Part shown: positions 8,574-60,787 of the stretch, one piece after another | Position numbering within the stretch: the first letter of the stretch is position 1 | Layout of the letters: each line of letters opens with the position of its first letter | DNA from: a bacterium | GTDB lineage: Bacteria; Patescibacteriota; Minisyncoccia; Phycocordibacterales; CAIZLB01 | Direction: 5' to 3' | Assembly (NCBI GenBank): GCA_027490575.1 | Contig: JAIXXV010000032.1 | Coordinates: 13,211 to 77,210 of the forward strand | Length of the DNA: 64,000 bases | Notes under the pieces: generated by a model | Database searches by the model: none | What the model was told of the DNA's origin: nothing | Seen by the model: the letters and a program-made list of their open reading frames with translations, nothing else | Program-made: the position numbers and the translations under genes

Positions 8574-8954
8574 TCAAGTGAAAGAACTTGCTGAGGAGCG
8601 GGATCTTTTGATAAAAACCAGCCTGCTAACAACTTGACCCAAGTACATAGCAGAAAAGGCCAGCATCATCCCTACAAATGAAGATATTGTTCGACTAAAA
8701 GCTATAACAACATCAGAATACGTGTATCCTAACTTGTGATACAAATCAAAAATACCAAGGTCTTTTGTCACCCTCCCGCCTGTCTCCTGCATTATATACA
8801 TGTAGATATACGGGTATCCGATATAGCTTTGGAAAATCCTGTATCCATTGTACCAAAGGCACAAAAATACAAGACAAATAATCACCTTGGCCAAATTGAT
8901 TGTGGTTGCTGTGACAAGTGGTTTATCCTCCATCAGGAATCGATGCTTGCTCAT
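8574..8954 (-). CDS. Hypothetical multi-pass membrane protein (126 aa)
   Basis: The ORF has 3 hydrophobic segments and a TGA stop. Hairpin agctggt/accagct at about 8527-8557 lies downstream. No family motif recognised. Confidence 0.4.
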   Translation of the reverse strand: MSKHRFLMEDKPLVTATTINLAKVIICLVFLCLWYNGYRIFQSYIGYPYIYMYIMQETGGRVTKDLGIFDLYHKLGYTYSDVVIAFSRTISSFVGMMLAFSAMYLGQVVSRLVFIKRSRSSASSFT

Positions 8955-9162: not shown

Positions 9163-10143
9163 ATGTGCTTTATGAATTCTTCAGAAAATATTTATGATCT
9201 TATCATTATTGGTGGTGGTCCTGCAGGCGTTGCAGCAGGTGTTTATGCATCTCGTAAAAAGCTTCGCACGCTCTTTTTGACAACAGACTTTTTAGGACAG
9301 AGCTCTGTTTCAGAAGGCATTGAAAACTGGATTGGTACTATCAAGATTAGTGGCACAGATCTATCAAAAGACCTTGAGGCTCATTTGCGTGCCTATGCTG
9401 GCGATATTGTGGATATAAAGACAGGTATATGGGTTAAGGATATCAAAAATCTCTCAGAACCTTCGCCTGCATCTACCCTATTTGAAGTAACAACAAAAGA
9501 CTATTCAGAAAAAGAAAGCTCGTACAAAGGCAAGACGGTACTTATAACCACTGGTAGTACACGTCGAAAACTTCCAGCTAAAAATGCTGATGTATTTGAG
9601 CATAAAGGTCTTACTTATTGTGCAACTTGTGATGGGCCTATCTTCTCTGGACAAGATGTTGCAGTCATCGGTGGAGGTAACGCTGCTTTTGAAAGTGCGG
9701 CTCAACTCGCTGCTTACTGTAAATCAGTGACTATAGTTAACCGTACTGACAAGTTTAGAGCTGACCCTGTTACAGTTGAGAAAGTTTGTGCTATGCCAAA
9801 CATGAAGGTTGTGACAGGTGTAGTTGTCGAAGAAATACTTGGAGATAAGTTTGTCAGTGGTTTTACATACAAAAAAGACGGATCAGATGTACTCGAGACA
9901 CTAGCGGTTACCGGTATCTTTGTGGAGATAGGACTAATACCAAACACTAGTTTCGCAAAGGAGGTAGTAGAGATAGACGCATATGGAAAGATAGCCGTTG
10001 ACCCTCGAACACAACAGACCAAAACAGCTGGCATATGGGCAGCTGGTGACTGTACAGATGGACTTTACCACCAAAACAACATTGCAGCAGGTGATGCAGT
10101 GAAGGCTTTGGAAGATATATATGTGAATTTGTTTACGAGGTAA
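9163..10143 (+). CDS. trxB: Thioredoxin-disulfide reductase
   Basis: FAD motif IIIGGGPAGVAAG, redox centre CATCDG, NAD(P)H motif VIGGGNAA. The start could instead be the ATG at 9172. Confidence 0.85.
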   Translation: MCFMNSSENIYDLIIIGGGPAGVAAGVYASRKKLRTLFLTTDFLGQSSVSEGIENWIGTIKISGTDLSKDLEAHLRAYAGDIVDIKTGIWVKDIKNLSEPSPASTLFEVTTKDYSEKESSYKGKTVLITTGSTRRKLPAKNADVFEHKGLTYCATCDGPIFSGQDVAVIGGGNAAFESAAQLAAYCKSVTIVNRTDKFRADPVTVEKVCAMPNMKVVTGVVVEEILGDKFVSGFTYKKDGSDVLETLAVTGIFVEIGLIPNTSFAKEVVEIDAYGKIAVDPRTQQTKTAGIWAAGDCTDGLYHQNNIAAGDAVKALEDIYVNLFTR

Positions 10144-10220
10144 TTTCAGCACTTCAGAAACTTTAAAAAACAATCTTTATTTTATTTGACACCCCTTTGT
10201 CAAAATGGTTTTATATATCA

Positions 10221-10361
10221 CAGAAACGACTGTCGGGTCGCTAGCGATATGGTATAAAAAGTGGTCTGGCTTTCAGTCAGCTCTCTTAGGGTAGCAATTT
10301 CCCTACCTATCAGGATCATTCAAAAACATAGGGGCCGACAACCCTTAGGAGGATAATAATC
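10221..10361 (+). promoter_or_regulatory. Structured 5' leader of 2-TM gene B1 with conserved boxes
   Basis: Boxes: CAGAAACGACTG (10221-10232), TGTCGG (10231-10236), palindrome TCGCTAGCGA (10238-10247), CATTCAAAAACATA (from 10317), GGGGCCGACA (10331-10340), SD AGGAGG (10347-10352). TGTCGG can pair with CCGACA (10335-10340), enclosing 98 nt. Confidence 0.45.
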
Positions 10362-11222
10362 ATGCAAAGCGAATTAGAAAAACAAGTAGAAGGAGCAGAA
10401 GATGGTGCAGAAAAAGACGAAATCGACTCGAGCATCTCGAGTGAGGTAGTTACCACGACAACAACAGCGCAAGGTGTCAAGCTTACCGAGCGAGAGCTCA
10501 GGATGCTGTTTGTCAGGACAAATCTGATTGACGACCTTGTCATGAGTATCGCAGGGAAAGTCCCTAAGAATGAAAAGGATGCCGGCCGGATCAAGAAACT
10601 CATTATTGCGACTCCTGCACAAATCTTGATCTTTGTTATCATTATGATACTGGCAATATTCACAATTTCGTCAGCGAAACATCTTGATCAACTATTCACA
10701 GGGACTGTGTCCAGTGCACTACTCAGTGTATCAGCAATCATGCTAGTTTTTTCCATCATCTTCACGTTGATTTCTGCGATTCGATGGTGGTATGACTACA
10801 AAAAAGAGCAGATTGACGGTTTGAAGAAGGTTGAACTCTTCATCGAGCACTTCCTCGATTCAATCATCCCAATAGAACGAGTCGATCAGGATAAAGTAAT
10901 CCATGAACTAGATGAGTTCGTCTTGGAAAGACTAACAAAAGTCTATCTTCATCTGCAAGCATATGTGGAATATTGCTCTATAAATCACATGATTTCTGTG
11001 TACGGTGTTCCGGAAAATTACGCTGAGTACGAAGAAGAGTGTGAAGTCATGTTTGATATTGCAATTAAAATTGGATGGAGCGTTGGAAATATTAGCCATT
11101 CAAGAGGTCGAATTGCAGGTGCTATCAAACGTCGAATCGATGAACTTGGAGGAGACGGTCTCTGGTCTAATACCTACTACCAGAGATGTGTTCATGGGCA
11201 CACTTGGATATTCCCAACATAA
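10362..11222 (+). CDS. Orphan 2-TM membrane protein B1 (acidic N-terminus, two central TM helices, helical C-domain)
   Basis: 286-aa ORF with a strong SD. TM helices ILIFVIIMILAIFTI and LLSVSAIMLVFSIIFTLI. C-terminal box YEEECEVMFDIAIKIGWSVGNIS is shared with B2. Confidence 0.6.
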   Translation: MQSELEKQVEGAEDGAEKDEIDSSISSEVVTTTTTAQGVKLTERELRMLFVRTNLIDDLVMSIAGKVPKNEKDAGRIKKLIIATPAQILIFVIIMILAIFTISSAKHLDQLFTGTVSSALLSVSAIMLVFSIIFTLISAIRWWYDYKKEQIDGLKKVELFIEHFLDSIIPIERVDQDKVIHELDEFVLERLTKVYLHLQAYVEYCSINHMISVYGVPENYAEYEEECEVMFDIAIKIGWSVGNISHSRGRIAGAIKRRIDELGGDGLWSNTYYQRCVHGHTWIFPT

Positions 11223-11260
11223 GTACATGGTATAACCCGGTTTGTTTGATGATCCAGTAT

Positions 11261-11290
11261 GCGCTCCGCCTGAAAATGGCGGAGCGTTTT
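11261..11290 (+). terminator. Rho-independent terminator of B1
   Basis: gcgctccgcc (11261-11270) / ggcggagcg (11278-11286) followed by tttt. Confidence 0.75.
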
Positions 11291-11347
11291 AATTATTTAC
11301 CTATTTACTTATAGTACAAAAATGCTTTAATCTACCTAGATTTTGGT

Positions 11348-11481
11348 TGTCGGACCATATCTCCAAACACGTAGCATGGAGTAACGGCCGAAAACCGTTG
11401 TTTCCTGGACCCGAAAAGTCCCGTTAATTTGGCACATTCAAAATACAAATGAGGGGCCGACACTTCTCGCACTCAAATACA
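11348..11481 (+). promoter_or_regulatory. Structured 5' leader of 2-TM gene B2, homologous to the B1 leader
   Basis: TGTCGG (11348-11353), two hairpins with identical CCGAAAA loops (11383-11399 and 11407-11421), CATTCAAAATACAAA (from 11435), GGGGCCGACA (11453-11462). The spacing from TGTCGG to CATTCA is 82 nt, against 81 nt in B1. Confidence 0.45.
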
Positions 11482-12249
11482 ATGAAACTCAGTGAAATCA
11501 ACTACCGCTTTACAGTCGAACCTGTATTGAGACTAATCCAATCCATGATGAAAAATGGCAATTACATCACTCCACAGAGCTCAAGCAGAACTCTGTCGAT
11601 GATGTTTTGGCTAAATTCGTCCATACGAAACGAGCTGATGCAATGGACTTTCAAAATTGGTCCATCGTGGCCAGAAGATCCAAATCCTCTAAAATCAATT
11701 ACAGGCGCAATGATTGCATTCATCATTGCATTAGCAGCAGGAGTGGCGCAGTACTTATTTCCAAATTTAGTACCATTTTTGATCATTTTCTTGCCCTCAG
11801 CAGTACTGTGTATTTACTGGACCACACTGTCTTTAGCCGCTGTGGTAGTCAGAATCAAAAAAGCATGCTTTCTTACTGACTTTATCAACATAGTTGGTAC
11901 AATACCGCTAATAAGGAGGCAGCATCTCATAAACCCTGGACATCGTGAAAGTAGCTATGATTACCTTGTCGTGGTGATGCTTTTGCAACAACTCATGAGT
12001 GTTTCCAAAAAGGTCAAAGGTAATACTGAAGACCCGAAGCTAAAAGATGAAGAGAAAAGGCTATATGACTCAGCCTTCAAACTTGGTGTACTAGGAGATG
12101 ACATCTCGGCCGTATACACGTTGGTATATCGGTTGATTGAGGAAAAGGAGCAAGGTAAACCTATAGGATCGGGTCAAAATAGCGGCGGAGATGGAGACGG
12201 CTTTCCAGAACCTGACCCAGACGCACTCCCGACAAGCGTCCTTGGTTAA
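11482..12249 (+). CDS. Orphan 2-TM membrane protein B2, tandem paralogue of B1
   Basis: The track ORF starts at 11449. ATG 11482 is preferred because it lies 29 nt after the GGGGCCGACA box (31 nt in B1). It has two TM helices, and its box DEEKRLYDSAFKLGVLGDDIS aligns with the B1 box. Confidence 0.55.
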   Translation: MKLSEINYRFTVEPVLRLIQSMMKNGNYITPQSSSRTLSMMFWLNSSIRNELMQWTFKIGPSWPEDPNPLKSITGAMIAFIIALAAGVAQYLFPNLVPFLIIFLPSAVLCIYWTTLSLAAVVVRIKKACFLTDFINIVGTIPLIRRQHLINPGHRESSYDYLVVVMLLQQLMSVSKKVKGNTEDPKLKDEEKRLYDSAFKLGVLGDDISAVYTLVYRLIEEKEQGKPIGSGQNSGGDGDGFPEPDPDALPTSVLG

Positions 12250-12307
12250 AGAGACAACGGAAGAGCGCCTGAGAAATCTGAGTAATAGAACGAGATTCTA
12301 GGACTGT

Positions 12308-12346
12308 GACCACTGTACCTGATAGCAAAGGTATGGTGGTTTTTTA
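12308..12346 (+). terminator. Rho-independent terminator of B2
   Basis: gaccactgtacct / aggtatggtggt (2 mismatches) followed by tttttatttg. Confidence 0.65.
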
Positions 12347-12381
12347 TTTGTAAATTATTAGCACCACCCACCTTTTGCACC

Positions 12382-12465
12382 CAATTCTTAATCCTTAATT
12401 CTTAATTTGCCGGTTCTGTTAATTCTGCGGGCAATTGTCAATTGCTAATTACTAATTACTAATTG
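12382..12465 (+). repeat. 7-nt periodic spacer, TAATTNN/CAATTNN class (12 heptads)
   Basis: caattct taatcct taattct taatttg ccggttc tgttaat tctgcgg gcaattg tcaattg ctaatta ctaatta ctaattg. The array overlaps the antiporter stop codon. Confidence 0.7.
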
Positions 12466-13832
12466 CTCACCTCCAACTTCCTCGCAACCCATTTAGTCAA
12501 AGGCGGTTGTATCACCAGAGTCATAATTATCACCCACATACCTATTGAGATAAGCATTTCAGGGTTACCAATATCGTATTTTGTCAAAAGACCACTGTAT
12601 GCAACTTGCACAAGAAGTACTGCTGGGATAACGCCAGTCTCTCGGACCCATGACATGAAGAGAAGCTCGCGAGTGTTAAGATCAATCTTCTTTGAAAAGA
12701 AACCGAGTGATAGAAATACTGAGGCAGGACGCACGATGAACATAAAGACAAGTCCGGCGAGTATTCCAAACCAAGCGTATTGTAGTAGCATTTGCACATT
12801 GACCAATGCTCCTAGGAGTATAAAGATACTTGGCTTTGCAATCCCCTCCACCAGCTGATTGAAAAATGTTTCTGTCTTGTGCACTTTTTCGTTCAATACA
12901 ACTAGAAGCCCTGCGATGAATGATGCTAAGTAACCACTTCCGCCAAACAGTACCGCAAATGCATATGCCATAATAGGGATAGCGATGAAGAAACCGATGT
13001 CGGCGTGGCACTCCGCACGCATTACCCTTTGTCTAACAAAAAATCGGATTGCAAAGAATCCGATAATACCAACTATTGACCCTACTACTAGCTCTTTTGA
13101 TAGGAAAATCATTGATTCCATAGAGACTAGTGCGCTAATACCTTGTGACATGTGCGTAAAAGCCCCTGCTCTTTCTACATACGTGATAAATGCCAATGTG
13201 ACCAAAGTACCAACCACGTCCGTCAATGCACTTTCTGAAACCAAGATGTCTTTGATACGGTCTTTCTTGAGCTTAAGCTCTTTGAACACAGGGATGATGG
13301 CTGCTGGATCAGTCGATGCAAGTATTGCCCCCAAAAGTAGTGCTAGCGACACGGACATTGTCATACCTGTCACTGTGCCGAGGACCGATAGACCTTGTGC
13401 CATAAAGAGAGTAGATGCCACAAGTCCGATGAAAGATAGTAGTACGGTAGGTAAAACTATTTTTCTAAATGATGAAAACGATATCTCCAAGCCTCCACCA
13501 AAAAGTATATATACCGCTGATATAGTAACTATCATGTTTAGAGCTGCGCTGTTTTCTATAAGTGGTTCCAACAAGTTGTGCATACTTAAACCTATAAACA
13601 AGGCAACTAGAAACGATGGAAATATTGTCCCCCTAGAGAGCGAGTGACAGATGGTACCCAGAAGAAACATTCCTCCTATCAAAAACAGTGGGGTTATACC
13701 CCCTACATGATCCACAGGAATCATTTCCGAATACTGTACAAACAATGCATTGAATATTGCAAAAACCGTAACACTGGTCAAAAGTATAAATGATGATGAA
13801 TGTCTCTTAAGCTTGCTTAGTTTGGCTATCAT
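12459..13832 (-). CDS. Monovalent cation:proton antiporter (CPA1/NhaP-type Na+/H+ exchanger)
   Basis: 457 aa with about 11-12 TM segments. The ASTDPAAIIPVF motif is typical of the Na+/H+ exchanger family. Confidence 0.8.
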   Translation of the reverse strand: MIAKLSKLKRHSSSFILLTSVTVFAIFNALFVQYSEMIPVDHVGGITPLFLIGGMFLLGTICHSLSRGTIFPSFLVALFIGLSMHNLLEPLIENSAALNMIVTISAVYILFGGGLEISFSSFRKIVLPTVLLSFIGLVASTLFMAQGLSVLGTVTGMTMSVSLALLLGAILASTDPAAIIPVFKELKLKKDRIKDILVSESALTDVVGTLVTLAFITYVERAGAFTHMSQGISALVSMESMIFLSKELVVGSIVGIIGFFAIRFFVRQRVMRAECHADIGFFIAIPIMAYAFAVLFGGSGYLASFIAGLLVVLNEKVHKTETFFNQLVEGIAKPSIFILLGALVNVQMLLQYAWFGILAGLVFMFIVRPASVFLSLGFFSKKIDLNTRELLFMSWVRETGVIPAVLLVQVAYSGLLTKYDIGNPEMLISIGMWVIIMTLVIQPPLTKWVARKLEVSN

Positions 13833-27333: not shown

Positions 27334-27334
27334 T

Positions 27335-27390
27335 CAGTTAGCAGGTATCAGATGACAGATATCAGTTGTCAGATAGCAGGTATCAGTTAG
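27335..27390 (+). repeat. 7-nt periodic spacer, CAGNTNN class (8 heptads)
   Basis: cagttag caggtat cagatga cagatat cagttgt cagatag caggtat cagttag. Starts directly after the prsW stop. Confidence 0.75.
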
Positions 27391-35348: not shown

Positions 35349-35396
35349 TTTGTTAATTCGTATTTATATTTTTGTTTGTTTTTGTCTTTTGTCGGG

Positions 35397-35438
35397 CCAA
35401 CTGTTAACTGCTATCTGATATCTGTCATCTGACACCTG
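35397..35438 (-). repeat. 7-nt periodic spacer, CAGNTNN class (6 heptads, minus orientation) abutting the nusB stop
   Basis: Minus strand reads caggtgt cagatga cagatat cagatag cagttaa cagttgg. Confidence 0.75.
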
Positions 35439-36362
35439 TTAAGCTACCACGTTCTGTTTTTTAAGCAATATCTGTACCGCCTTCGTAACTATTGGCAAAA
35501 TGTCATTATAAAAATTGAGCGTTAGTAGATCTTTTGCATTAAACCACCTTGCATCTGTTAGTCCTCCACTGGTTCCAAGTGTAAGCGGTATAAAGTCGGA
35601 CTTTGCCAGGTAGTAACAAACTTGCTTTCGAATCTTGCCATCTTCTGGATGAGATGCAATGTACTCATTGTTAGCCAACTCTTCCTCTATCTCAATATCT
35701 ATACCCATCTCCTCCTTAATCTCACGCATGATGCCATCTTTCATATCTTCGTCACCTTCTAATTTACCTTTTGATAGAGTCCAGTGCCCAAAAACATCAT
35801 GAACTAGAGCGAACTGCATCTCACCATCGTGCATGGCATATACCACAGCACCTCCTAGTTTTTGTATTGGCATTTCTTCATAAGGAACTTCCTTTTTCTC
35901 CTTTTTTTGCTTTTTTGTAGAAACCTCCTCCTTTCCTGGCTCGCCCATCTCTTTGTAGACAGCACCGAGTACTCCGTTTACGAACTTGCCGGATGTTTCC
36001 CCTCCGAAAGACTTCGCCAGCTCAATAGCCTCGTTGATGGCCACTTTAGCTGGTACCTCCTTCCTATCGCCAAAAATTAGCTCAAAAAGGCCTATTCTGA
36101 GCACATTTCGATCAACTATCGCAATCTTGGGTATTGGCCACTCAGGAGCTGCTTTTTCAATGATTAGGTCTATTTCAGGGTTCTTTTTAACCACACCATC
36201 TACAATGTTTTTAATAAACGAAAAATCGCCCATACCAGGAGCGAATTCTTCAACATTTCTTTGAACAATTTCACCAACAACAGCAGAGTCTGAAATACCT
36301 CGAAAGTCTCTTTCGAAAAGTGATTGTAGTGCTATTGATCGTGAAAGGTGCCTATTTGCCAT
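35439..36362 (-). CDS. nusB: NusB antitermination factor fused to a C-terminal Nudix hydrolase domain
   Basis: N-terminal ~140 aa are NusB-like (RSIALQSLFERDF...AINEAIELAKSFG). A K/E-rich linker follows. The C-terminal domain has an intact Nudix box GKLEGDEDMKDGIMREIKEEMGI. Confidence 0.8.
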   Translation of the reverse strand: MANRHLSRSIALQSLFERDFRGISDSAVVGEIVQRNVEEFAPGMGDFSFIKNIVDGVVKKNPEIDLIIEKAAPEWPIPKIAIVDRNVLRIGLFELIFGDRKEVPAKVAINEAIELAKSFGGETSGKFVNGVLGAVYKEMGEPGKEEVSTKKQKKEKKEVPYEEMPIQKLGGAVVYAMHDGEMQFALVHDVFGHWTLSKGKLEGDEDMKDGIMREIKEEMGIDIEIEEELANNEYIASHPEDGKIRKQVCYYLAKSDFIPLTLGTSGGLTDARWFNAKDLLTLNFYNDILPIVTKAVQILLKKQNVVA

Positions 36363-56920: not shown

Positions 56921-56961
56921 TAATTCTTAATTGCTATCTGATAACTGTTATCTGCTACCTG
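56920..56961 (-). repeat. 7-nt periodic spacer, CAGNTNN class (6 heptads, minus orientation) running into the methyltransferase start codon
   Basis: Minus strand reads caggtag cagataa cagttat cagatag caattaa gaattaa followed by tg (ATG). Confidence 0.75.
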
Positions 56962-56972
56962 TAACCGTTTTG

Positions 56973-60080: not shown

Positions 60081-60656
60081 CTATAATTTACGTATAACCG
60101 CTTTAACTACAGCAGCAATTTTGAGGTCATACTCAGGGTATATATTTTTAAATTTTTTATTTGCCGGTTCAAGGTATATCTGACCTTTTTTATCTCTCCT
60201 AAAATACTTCATCGTCCAACCTCCGTCGACTTCTGCGATTACAATATCTCCCACCTTTGCATTTTCAGTTCTCTCAACAAGAACAAGGTCACCTTCAGCT
60301 ATGTGAGCTTCTATCATTGATTCCCCTTTCACTTCGAGCATATACGTTGAGCCTTTTGTACCTTCCAAAAGGAGCTCGTCTATAGAAGTAGAATCAAGTA
60401 CATCTTCTTCTGCCACTGTTGGCATACCAGCTTCTACTAGTCCAAGTAAAGGAATCTCATTTGAAAGCTTTTGGGGTGTAAGCTTGCCCCTCGAGTCCTT
60501 GTTGAATACACCTTCCTCTACAAGTTTGTTAATGAGTTTATAGACAGCATTTTTGGACTTGAATCCAAGCATATCCATAATCTCATTATACCCAGGCACA
60601 CGCCTATTGGTCTTATAGAAATTAAGTATTTTTTGTTTGTAATCTTGGTAAGTCAT
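60081..60656 (-). CDS. lexA: LexA repressor (S24 peptidase)
   Basis: N-terminal winged HTH. Cleavage/catalytic region VKGESMIEAHIAEGDLVLVER...GDIVIA...TMKYF. Confidence 0.85.
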   Translation of the reverse strand: MTYQDYKQKILNFYKTNRRVPGYNEIMDMLGFKSKNAVYKLINKLVEEGVFNKDSRGKLTPQKLSNEIPLLGLVEAGMPTVAEEDVLDSTSIDELLLEGTKGSTYMLEVKGESMIEAHIAEGDLVLVERTENAKVGDIVIAEVDGGWTMKYFRRDKKGQIYLEPANKKFKNIYPEYDLKIAAVVKAVIRKL

Positions 60657-60662
60657 TTTTTG

Positions 60663-60753
60663 CAGTTATCAGGTGGTGGTTAGCAGATATCAGGTATCAG
60701 ATGACAGATATCAGGTATCAGGTATCAGGTATCAGATGACAGATATCAGGTAT
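60663..60753 (+). repeat. Longest 7-nt periodic array, CAGNTNN class (13 heptads) immediately upstream of lexA
   Basis: cagttat caggtgg tggttag cagatat caggtat cagatga cagatat caggtat caggtat caggtat cagatga cagatat caggtat. Confidence 0.8.
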
Positions 60754-60787
60754 CCATTAAATGCTAATGCTTAGATGCTGGAGTCTA

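Follow-up and report, generated by a model that had tools for sequence, protein, structure and literature searches.

The purine riboswitch carries, within a single 5′ untranslated region (UTR), two hairpins whose conserved, complementary loops make the L2-L3 contact while their stems are free to covary. In the hok (fbi element), tisB, and zorO mRNAs, the 5′ end is complementary to a segment beside the translation start of a membrane-protein message, and this arrangement plausibly holds the mRNA in a compact, stable form that is poorly translated. The ompA, aprE, and ermC 5′ stabilizers place a hairpin a few nucleotides (nt) from the 5′ end, where it could block 5′-end-dependent RNases, and the ColE1 RNAI/RNAII, CopA/CopT, and TAR-TAR* pairs meet through fully complementary loops of six or seven nt, a 6-bp kiss between hexaloops being sterically feasible. 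Here we describe mRNA leaders with a likeness to each of these systems in a 64-kb stretch of a Patescibacteria genome (contig JAIXXV010000032.1; hereafter the window, 64,000 nt long, to which unlabeled coordinates refer). The leaders precede two adjacent plus-strand genes, B1 (10362-11222) and B2 (11482-12249), that encode orphan membrane proteins. Patescibacteria, or the candidate phyla radiation (CPR), have tiny genomes and few regulators and mostly cannot be grown alone, and their gene regulation is almost unexplored.

From 5′ to 3′, each leader is laid out as a hairpin with the loop UGUCGG, placed ∼6 nt inside the predicted 5′ end; two or three further hairpins that are unconstrained in sequence; an unpaired A-rich box (CAUUCAAAA); and a hairpin with the loop CCGACA that ends 9-15 nt 5′ of the start codon. 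We read the leaders of B1, B2, and a third gene found at a related locus, L044, as a new and narrowly distributed family of cis-acting RNAs of the Paceibacteria in which a loop-loop contact ties the 5′ end to the initiation region, with each gene forming a separate transcription unit of promoter, structured leader of ∼135-140 nt, open reading frame (ORF), and terminator; we lean toward this account rather than hold it firmly. Unlike the purine riboswitch, the leaders give no RF00167 match, their two hairpins lie ∼100 nt apart with two or three others between them rather than as arms of one three-way junction, and they have no conserved junction core, terminator platform, or known ligand. The hok, tisB, and zorO proteins are shorter than 60 residues, and their mRNAs have antisense RNAs and extended helices, whereas the proteins here have 234-286 residues, no antisense promoter is seen, and the complementarity is one of six loop bases. 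The ompA, aprE, and ermC stabilizers need no conserved loop or distal partner, whereas here an invariant loop is matched by a second loop. The ColE1, CopA, and TAR contacts are intermolecular, whereas here both loops sit on one transcript, although pairing in trans between the B1 and B2 mRNAs may also occur.

The boxes that an earlier, sequence-only reading of the window had pointed out are all present, as are its terminators and its distances from box to start codon. TGTCGG lies at 10231-10236 (B1) and 11348-11353 (B2), CATTCAAAA at 10317-10325 and 11435-11443, and GGGGCCGACA at 10331-10340 and 11453-11462. The last of these begins 31 nt 5′ of the B1 start codon (ATG 10362) and 29 nt 5′ of that of B2 (ATG 11482), and it has just these two copies in the window even at one mismatch. 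The gap between TGTCGG and CATTCAAAA measures 80 nt (B1) and 81 nt (B2); TGTCGG and CCGACA are 98 and 103 nt apart. That reading counted three leaders, and the window holds two. The regions upstream of B1 and B2 share four collinear exact blocks at near-constant offset, namely AAAATG in the -10 region, TGTCGG, CATTCAAAA, and AGGGGCCGACA. A banded collinear chain of exact matches of at least 6 nt scores 32, which was reached by 1 of 2000 dinucleotide shuffles; the 11-mer alone is weaker, a common run of at least 11 nt being found in 9 of 2000.

The transcription starts given here follow from predicted promoters. For B1 (10186-10214) we propose TTGACA at 10186-10191, a 17-nt spacer, and a TGn-extended -10 element TTTTAT at 10209-10214, with a start at ∼10220-10222; for B2 (11304-11331) we propose TTTACT, a 16-nt spacer, and a TGn-extended TTTAAT at 11326-11331, with a start at ∼11338. 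The -10 block AAAATGnTTTnAT is common to both genes and stands 16 nt from TGTCGG in each. For comparison we used DNA from relatives, namely the syntenic contigs L001/L002, L003, L004, and L005 (from JGI, NCBI, and Logan) and 80 ftsZ-neighborhood loci of related species. The predicted B2 promoter is kept in L001, L003, L004, and L005 even where the DNA upstream of it differs. At the other end of each unit lies an intrinsic terminator, at 11261-11287 for B1 (10 pairs, 8 of them G-C, followed by a T-run) and at 12308-12341 for B2, the latter conserved in L001, L004, and L005.

The 5′ hairpin of B1 (10227-10240) consists of the stem CGAC/GUCG around the hexaloop at 10231-10236 and is returned independently by RNAalifold; that of B2 (11344-11357) presents the same loop, at 11348-11353, on the stem UGGU/ACCA. 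Of the 19 TGTCGG sites in the window, the two in the leaders alone have complementary 4-bp flanks; among ∼640 nonleader TGTCGG sites in 1.34 Mb, ∼3.6% have them. Across B1, B2, and L044, all four stem pairs of this hairpin are changed on both sides. The 3′ hairpin of B1 (10329-10347) has the stem UAGGGG/CCCUUA and the loop CCGACAA and abuts the Shine-Dalgarno (SD) sequence AGGAGG at 10347-10352. In L001 and L003, a G-to-U change adds a U-A pair, so that the loop becomes exactly the hexaloop CCGACA. Its counterpart in B2 (11450-11469) has the stem UGAGGGG/CUUCUCG and the hexaloop CCGACA at 11457-11462, and it is kept in the homologues, where one G·U pair becomes A-U in L004 and one becomes G-C in L001. 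The A-rich box CAUUCAAAA, 5′ of this hairpin at 10317-10325 (B1) and 11435-11443 (B2), is identical in all B1 and B2 leaders.

Between the terminal hairpins, the central domain of B1 (10250-10308) contains a helix P2 (10250-10254/10304-10308) that encloses H2 (10263-10271/10275-10283) and H3 (10289-10294/10298-10303). RNAalifold, given the three B1 leaders, returns the 5′ hairpin, P2, H2, H3, and the 3′ hairpin, and P2 shows a compensatory change from A-U to G-C. The internal hairpins of B2 (11361-11421) are H1 (11361-11365/11377-11381), H2 (11382-11387/11395-11400), and H3 (11407-11410/11418-11421). The last two are the CCGAAAA-looped hairpins of the earlier reading, with AACGG/CCGUU at 11383-11399 and GGAC/GUCC at 11407-11421. 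In the alignment, H2 of B1 and H2 of B2 share their columns but not their sequences, and 4-5 of the pairs are changed on both sides. Among the four B2 leaders, substitutions keep or improve the pairing in each internal hairpin: A·A becomes A-U or G·U in H1, U·G becomes C-G and A-U becomes G·U in H2, and G-C becomes G·U with an added new C-G pair in H3. A B1 palindrome to which the earlier reading had drawn attention, TCGCTAGCGA, is present at 10238-10247 and is not conserved, L001 and L003 having TCGACTAAAT.

In the alignment of seven leaders, 96.6% of hairpin cells are paired and 8 pairs are changed on both sides, compared with 26-55% paired in slid controls. G·U pairs make up ∼15% of hairpin cells, and covariance models score the sense strand at 111-155 bits and the antisense strand at 13-17 bits; the G·U frequency and the sense-favoring scores together argue that the functional molecule is the sense RNA. 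The third leader came from a search of related loci with a covariance model, a check that the earlier reading had proposed. Model R1, built from the B1 and B2 leaders only and run against 1.16 Mb of related loci, gave one significant match outside its training set, at L044 10142-10010 on the minus strand (34.5 bits; E ∼4e-5, a rough value from a shortened calibration). We note that L044 was first noticed in a search for the boxes and that the R1 score is the unbiased measure. The match is full-length and ends on the ATG of a 234-residue orphan ORF that lies between ftsZ and trxB, in a species whose FtsZ is 74% identical to that of the window. Its product has a strong first transmembrane (TM) helix, after which come a second, weaker hydrophobic segment and a basic stretch; it shows neither detectable similarity to B1 or B2 nor any relatives in a homologue search.

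The L044 leader has a 5′ hairpin, AGUUAC-UGUCGG-GUAACU (stem GUUAC/GUAAC), and a 3′ hairpin, GGGAGA-CCGACA-UCUUCC, nine nt before the ATG. It also has a plausible promoter, H1, H2 (loop CCAGAAG), and H3, and an A-rich stretch, CUAAAAUAAAAUA, at the position of CAUUCAAAA. In the alignment that adds L044 (A10), which was fitted to the model, 12 of the 16 hairpin pairs carry changes on both sides, the paired fraction is still 96.6%, and no shuffle equals the score. UGUCGG and CCGACA are kept in loops, perfectly complementary, in all eight leaders of the three types.

The leaders also evolve slowly. Between the window and L001, the synonymous divergence (dS) is 0.57-0.93 in ftsZ, trxB, and the antiporter gene, 0.28 in B1, and 0.42 in B2, compared with distances of 0.156 for the B1 leader and 0.063 for the B2 leader. 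Against L004, the B2 leader has 1 change in 148 nt at a dS of 0.23-0.25, and against L005, its distance is 0.077 at a dS of 1.3; there the leader is 93% identical and the protein 45% identical. Leader evolution is 4-35 times slower than that of neighboring synonymous sites; for B2, measured against synonymous sites within its own coding sequence (CDS), the leader is 7-35 times less diverged. A conserved peptide was not found in any of the six frames of the B2 leader. The claim of a conserved, structured RNA leader holds, given its slow evolution, its covarying stems, and the recovery of a third leader by a model trained on B1 and B2.

We propose that the UGUCGG and CCGACA loops pair in a 6-bp intramolecular kissing contact that would link the 5′ end of the mRNA with the translation-initiation region, the 5′-terminal hairpin docking on a hairpin at the edge of the ribosome-binding region. 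The compact fold, or its release to a state in which the 5′ box pairs with a CCGA/CCGGCA-like segment of H2, could set access of the 30S subunit, and the compact fold could also, or instead, shield the 5′ end from 5′-end-dependent decay. Either way, the leader would control the output of fast-evolving two-TM membrane proteins. We infer the loop-loop contact from its geometry and energy. In L044, the complementarity consists of exactly the six loop bases and the flanks pair locally. The loop duplex is worth -7.8 kcal/mol, and with it the hairpin fold falls below the minimum free energy (MFE) fold for B1 and L044 and lies ∼2.5 kcal/mol above it for B2.

Several observations weigh against this account. 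The six loop-loop pairs never vary, so that covariation cannot test the contact, and the stem covariation comes from three independent lineages only, with the structure derived from the same sequences. Taken singly, the leaders have MFEs no more stable than those of shuffled sequences (z = +0.16, -0.62, and -0.07), and the MFE folds of the window B1, B2, and L044 leaders do not contain the full set of proposed hairpins; both terminal hairpins are present in the MFE fold of the L001 B1 leader. For the B2 leaders, the fold that RNAalifold favors is a different one, which accommodates almost every substitution just as well. The discriminating change is a G-to-A in L004, which gives an A-U pair in our model and a C·A mismatch in the RNAalifold fold. 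The promoters are consensus-like readings of the sequence and were not called by the scanner, which missed that of B1 because its -10 rule demands A at position 2. No clear SD-sequestering helix was found in the leaders, where only the optional B2 start, ATG 11449, lies in a stem; the SD of B1, the region's only strong one, sits directly 3′ of the 3′ hairpin and outside the stem, and B2 and L044 have none, like ∼80% of window genes. A sense-strand terminator was likewise not found within either leader, the scan's one site there being on the minus strand (10344-10332), so transcription attenuation is unlikely; post-transcriptional control, of translation or of mRNA stability, is the most likely mode. 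Finally, the model search covered the ftsZ neighborhoods of 80 related species only. Of the cis-regulatory control claimed by the sequence-only reading, conservation and structure are borne out, and the regulatory role is one that we infer for a leader with neither a terminator nor an SD-sequestering platform of the usual riboswitch kind.

The competing structure that fares best takes the two boxes as strands of a long-range UGUCGG/CCGACA helix that closes a multibranch domain and alternates, in response to a ligand or protein, with pairing to a pseudo-box in H2. The sequence-only reading had proposed such a closing helix. In B1 and B2 the helix can indeed be extended to 8-9 of 9 pairs, the G-to-U change of L001 and L003 giving 9 of 9, and forcing the helix costs 1.4-6.5 kcal/mol relative to the MFE. 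In L044, by contrast, the complementarity ends at 6 bp and both flanks are taken up in local 6-bp stems, and the local stems covary. The covarying flank stems, the six-base limit in L044, and the energy of the loop duplex lead us to favor the loop-loop contact, with the boxes as hairpin loops. The switching part of the proposal draws on the MFE folds of the window B1, B2, and L044 leaders, in which the 5′ box pairs instead with the CCGA/CCGGCA-like H2 segment, in its 5′ arm or loop (GGCCGA in B2, UCCGGCAG in L044), through G·U-rich helices that are roughly isoenergetic with the hairpin fold. Alternation between the hairpin state and the 5′ box-H2 state is suggestive only, since a G-to-A change in the L001 B1 leader weakens the alternative helix. 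No conserved multihelix junction core was found beyond the loops and the A-rich box across the three lineages. Taken together, we consider a riboswitch-like closing helix or bistable leader unlikely, although it deserves to be kept in view. Still more doubtful is its boldest form, a CPR-specific bistable sensor RNA (a riboswitch, or a protein- or temperature-responsive element) in which the 5′ box would toggle between the H2 pseudo-box and the loop near the ribosome-binding site and so gate diversifying membrane proteins, perhaps at the interface between episymbiont and host.

Our results are in agreement with the earlier statement that the leader fits no known riboswitch class. A scan of the whole window with Rfam 15 at gathering thresholds, also among the checks proposed earlier, returned two tRNAs only, and in 10100-12450 at E up to 10 there were only two snoRNA chance matches of 17-18 bits. 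A T-box was considered and rejected, no tRNA complementarity having been found in the leaders, and a literature search on the box sequences gave nothing relevant. By these comparisons, the leader is a previously undescribed structured cis-acting mRNA leader that belongs to no known class. A second model, R2, with L044 among its sequences, recovered no additional member from the related loci, including six loci searched with filters off. In metagenome contigs, the pattern TGTCGG-N70-95-CATTCAAAA-N4-14-GNCCGACA gave 28 loci, of which 27 were chance matches and the other was L004 again. A genome scan with the B2 alignment gave no relative, and a phage database gave no match. Complementary hexaloops 70-130 nt apart, used as a generic criterion, yielded ∼100 chance pairs in 2.3 Mb (both strands) and are unspecific without the box sequence. 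Two candidates, L087 and L092, were inspected and rejected. The distribution of the leader is apparently narrow in these capped collection scans, covering two species-level lineages among those examined. At L050, a two-TM orphan between ftsZ and trxB has a ∼130-nt GC-rich structured leader, in which CATTCAAAA stands 4 nt 5′ of the likely ATG (9432); this leader lacks the UGUCGG and CCGACA loops and scores 9-12 bits, and it is possibly a distant relative of those of B1 and B2.

The surroundings of the genes bear on a different explanation, in which the promoter-leader module or the whole unit moves or recombines as a cassette, with the hairpins serving as signals for recombination or transposition. 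The order ftsZ-trxB is widely conserved, and in the closest relatives trxB is followed by a convergent gene for a Na+/H+ antiporter. B1 and B2 of the window are placed between trxB and the antiporter gene. The ftsZ-anchored loci assign the organism to the class Paceibacteria (Parcubacteria) of the Patescibacteria, close to Taylorbacteria and Zambryskibacteria. The best FtsZ identity between the window and a species representative is 86%, and none of the 80 related ftsZ-anchored loci encodes B1 or B2. At the same junction, two relatives have a class I fructose-bisphosphate aldolase gene (L034 10464-11414 and L036 10393-11280), one has a tRNA gene (L037 10540-10620), and in one the junction is empty (L039 11082-11099), the antiporter gene and trxB nearly abutting. 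Since junction contents differ among relatives and no related locus has the genes, the B1-B2 pair is, on this comparison, a lineage-specific insertion at a variable site. Sites and orientations around trxB differ as well: the window units are plus-strand and lie 3′ of trxB, whereas the L044 unit is minus-strand and lies between ftsZ and trxB. The downstream ORFs have no detectable homology, the loop order reads the same on both DNA strands, and the L005 allele is a mosaic with conserved ends, all of which a cassette would accommodate. Against mobility of the module, there are no dispersed copies in the 64-kb window or the 1.16 Mb of related loci beyond the two gene-proximal ones and that of L044, and there is no transposase or integrase nearby, the neighbors being ftsZ, trxB, and the antiporter gene. 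In addition, the element always ends a fixed short distance 5′ of an ORF start, and the B1/B2 homology reaches upstream into the promoter. We regard hairpins that serve recombination or transposition as improbable; it is possible that whole promoter-leader-ORF cassettes move within the ftsZ-trxB neighborhood.

The boxes might alternatively act as DNA, with TGTCGG and its inverted copy serving as operator half-sites for a repressor that bends ∼105 bp of DNA into a loop over the promoter-proximal region. In B1 as in B2, exactly 16 bp separate the -10 element from the first box downstream of it, and the two boxes are one sequence on opposite strands. A fused palindrome, TGTCGGGCCGAC, also occurs 3′ of B2 in L001, with a degenerate copy beside heptad arrays at 35388-35400 of the window. 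However, the flanks of the boxes are not conserved yet remain complementary, which is the signature of RNA rather than of protein-DNA recognition, and the internal hairpins covary too, with frequent G·U pairs. The start-to-start spacings of 102, 104, 106, or 109 bp are moreover out of helical phase. These features leave an operator pair with quite a small chance of being correct.

Membrane-damaging proteins silenced by a folded 5′ UTR and a loop-kissing antisense RNA, as in type I toxin-antitoxin systems, would account for orphan, fast-evolving membrane products and for pairing of the 5′ end with the initiation region that resembles the inert hok and tisB mRNA folds; an antisense transcript would bear the same kind of loops. 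The proteins here have 234-286 residues, however, and not fewer than 60. A consensus scan found no minus-strand promoter in 10000-12600, the covariance models strongly favor the sense strand, and PADLOC gives only a weak generic 2TM effector match (E = 0.013). A 46-residue antisense ORF over the B2 leader (11332-11472, minus strand) is open in all four homologues, but its substitutions are nearly all nonsynonymous and it is probably not coding. An arrangement of this type is very unlikely in our judgment. Least credible of all is the view that a tandem duplication left the boxes behind and that chance, or recent recombination between strains, has preserved them without any function: the dS of B1 and B2 (0.28-0.42) below that of the flanking genes (0.57-0.93) does suggest a more recent exchange of the segment, and the B1 leader, at 86% identity, is no more conserved than the B1 CDS, but synonymous sites in the B2 CDS have diverged far more than the leader before it, the boxes persist where the rest of the B1 and B2 leaders, and the proteins, are randomized, and L044 presents the same loops on other stems before an unrelated ORF.

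The encoded proteins offer few clues of their own. B1 has 286 residues with two clear TM helices at ∼81-99 and 119-137. B2 has 255 residues from ATG 11482, or 266 from the in-frame ATG 11449, and one continuous hydrophobic stretch of ∼50 residues (71-123) that is compatible with two TM helices, so that the two-TM architecture claimed for both is clear for B1 alone. Gene callers differ on the B2 start (266, 264, and 253 residues). ATG 11449 lies in the base of the 3′ hairpin and directly 3′ of the A-rich box, the latter position being the usual setting for initiation in this genome; 6 of 9 substitutions in 11449-11481 fall at third codon positions, and the same changes also fit the hairpin. Homologue searches for B1 and B2 over 5.8 billion clusters gave three or four close relatives only, and a B2 profile found only B2 itself and P0007 among 1.84 billion representatives. 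For B1, B2, and the L044 protein, searches of Pfam, PHROG, PADLOC, NCBIfam, and PDB sequences gave only weak matches driven by hydrophobic segments. The AlphaFold2 models, another check proposed earlier, are all-helical and of low confidence (predicted local distance difference test scores of 42 for B2 and 49 for B1), too poor for a fold search or comparison.

The sequence-only reading had described B1 and B2 as paralogues within a protein family, but the similarity between them is not significant either by BLASTP (E = 1.1) or in the profile-profile comparison it had called for (hhalign E = 0.018, probability 2.6%); the sole region aligned by hhalign is the box that it had named. Only adjacency, a shared architecture, two short collinear motifs, and a homologous promoter and leader hint at paralogy, which we consider plausible. 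Both genes evolve quickly, with ratios of nonsynonymous to synonymous divergence of 0.29-0.43 compared with 0.04-0.05 in ftsZ, trxB, and the antiporter gene. The B2 allele of L005 (227-946, aligned with 11482-12249 of the window) is a mosaic with 45% amino acid identity overall and a dS of 1.3; its promoter, leader, first ∼25 codons, last ∼50 codons, and terminator are nearly identical to those of the window, its center including the TM region is diverged, and the upstream gene or terminator differs. This pattern suggests a cassette-like replacement or diversifying selection. In L003, the B1 homologue (a Logan contig) has an in-frame TAG at 1138-1140 in place of the TGT of the window. This TAG lies 11 codons short of the normal end, and the similarity continues past it. 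Other small orphan two-TM ORFs adjoin trxB at L050 9296-10094, L039 9492-10070 (minus strand), and 8574-8954 of the window (minus strand), the last encoding 126 residues and lacking a structured leader.

Across the window, an SD-like motif at -7 to -16 precedes only 8 of 47 long ORFs. Upstream regions are mostly A/T-rich and very short, many with a TATAAT-like box within ∼10 nt of the ATG, which suggests that leaderless or very-short-leader mRNAs are widespread. Against this background of short, A/T-rich, SD-less upstream regions, the long and GC-richer leaders of B1 and B2 are exceptional. The intergenic DNA also holds arrays of degenerate 7-bp repeats (CAGATAT, CAGGTAT, and CAGTTAG, with AATTACT and AATTCTT variants) at 12383-12407, 12440-12464, 27334-27390, 35413-35439, 56935-56962, and 60684-60754 of the window and, in relatives, at L001 8040-8095, L005 1050-1142, and L004 1640-1715. 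They often stand just 5′ of genes, for example before the minus-strand ATGs at 60656, 56920, 34515, and 19509, and they are also present 3′ of B2 in all relatives. The fused palindrome cTGTCGGGCCGACt, in which box 1 is joined to box 3, opens the array 3′ of B2 at L001 8039-8052 (seen in L001 and L002), and its degenerate copy in the window, TGTCGGGCCAAC at 35388-35400, adjoins another heptad array. Two unrelated metagenome contigs among those with chance matches to the box pattern, L006 (1090-1450) and L028 (760-960 and 5080-5400), contain dense arrays of the 9-mers TGTCGGACA and TGTCCGACA at 10-20 bp spacing that look like iterons or operators.

These findings support the notion that the conserved leader marks a set of lineage-specific, fast-evolving membrane proteins as specially controlled. 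They indicate that a regulatory RNA can outlast all recognizable similarity of the proteins encoded downstream, and searching for the leader may be a way to locate such orphan genes. Should the loop-loop contact prove real, these leaders would be a compact system, easy to test, in which the 5′ end of a bacterial mRNA communicates with its initiation region.

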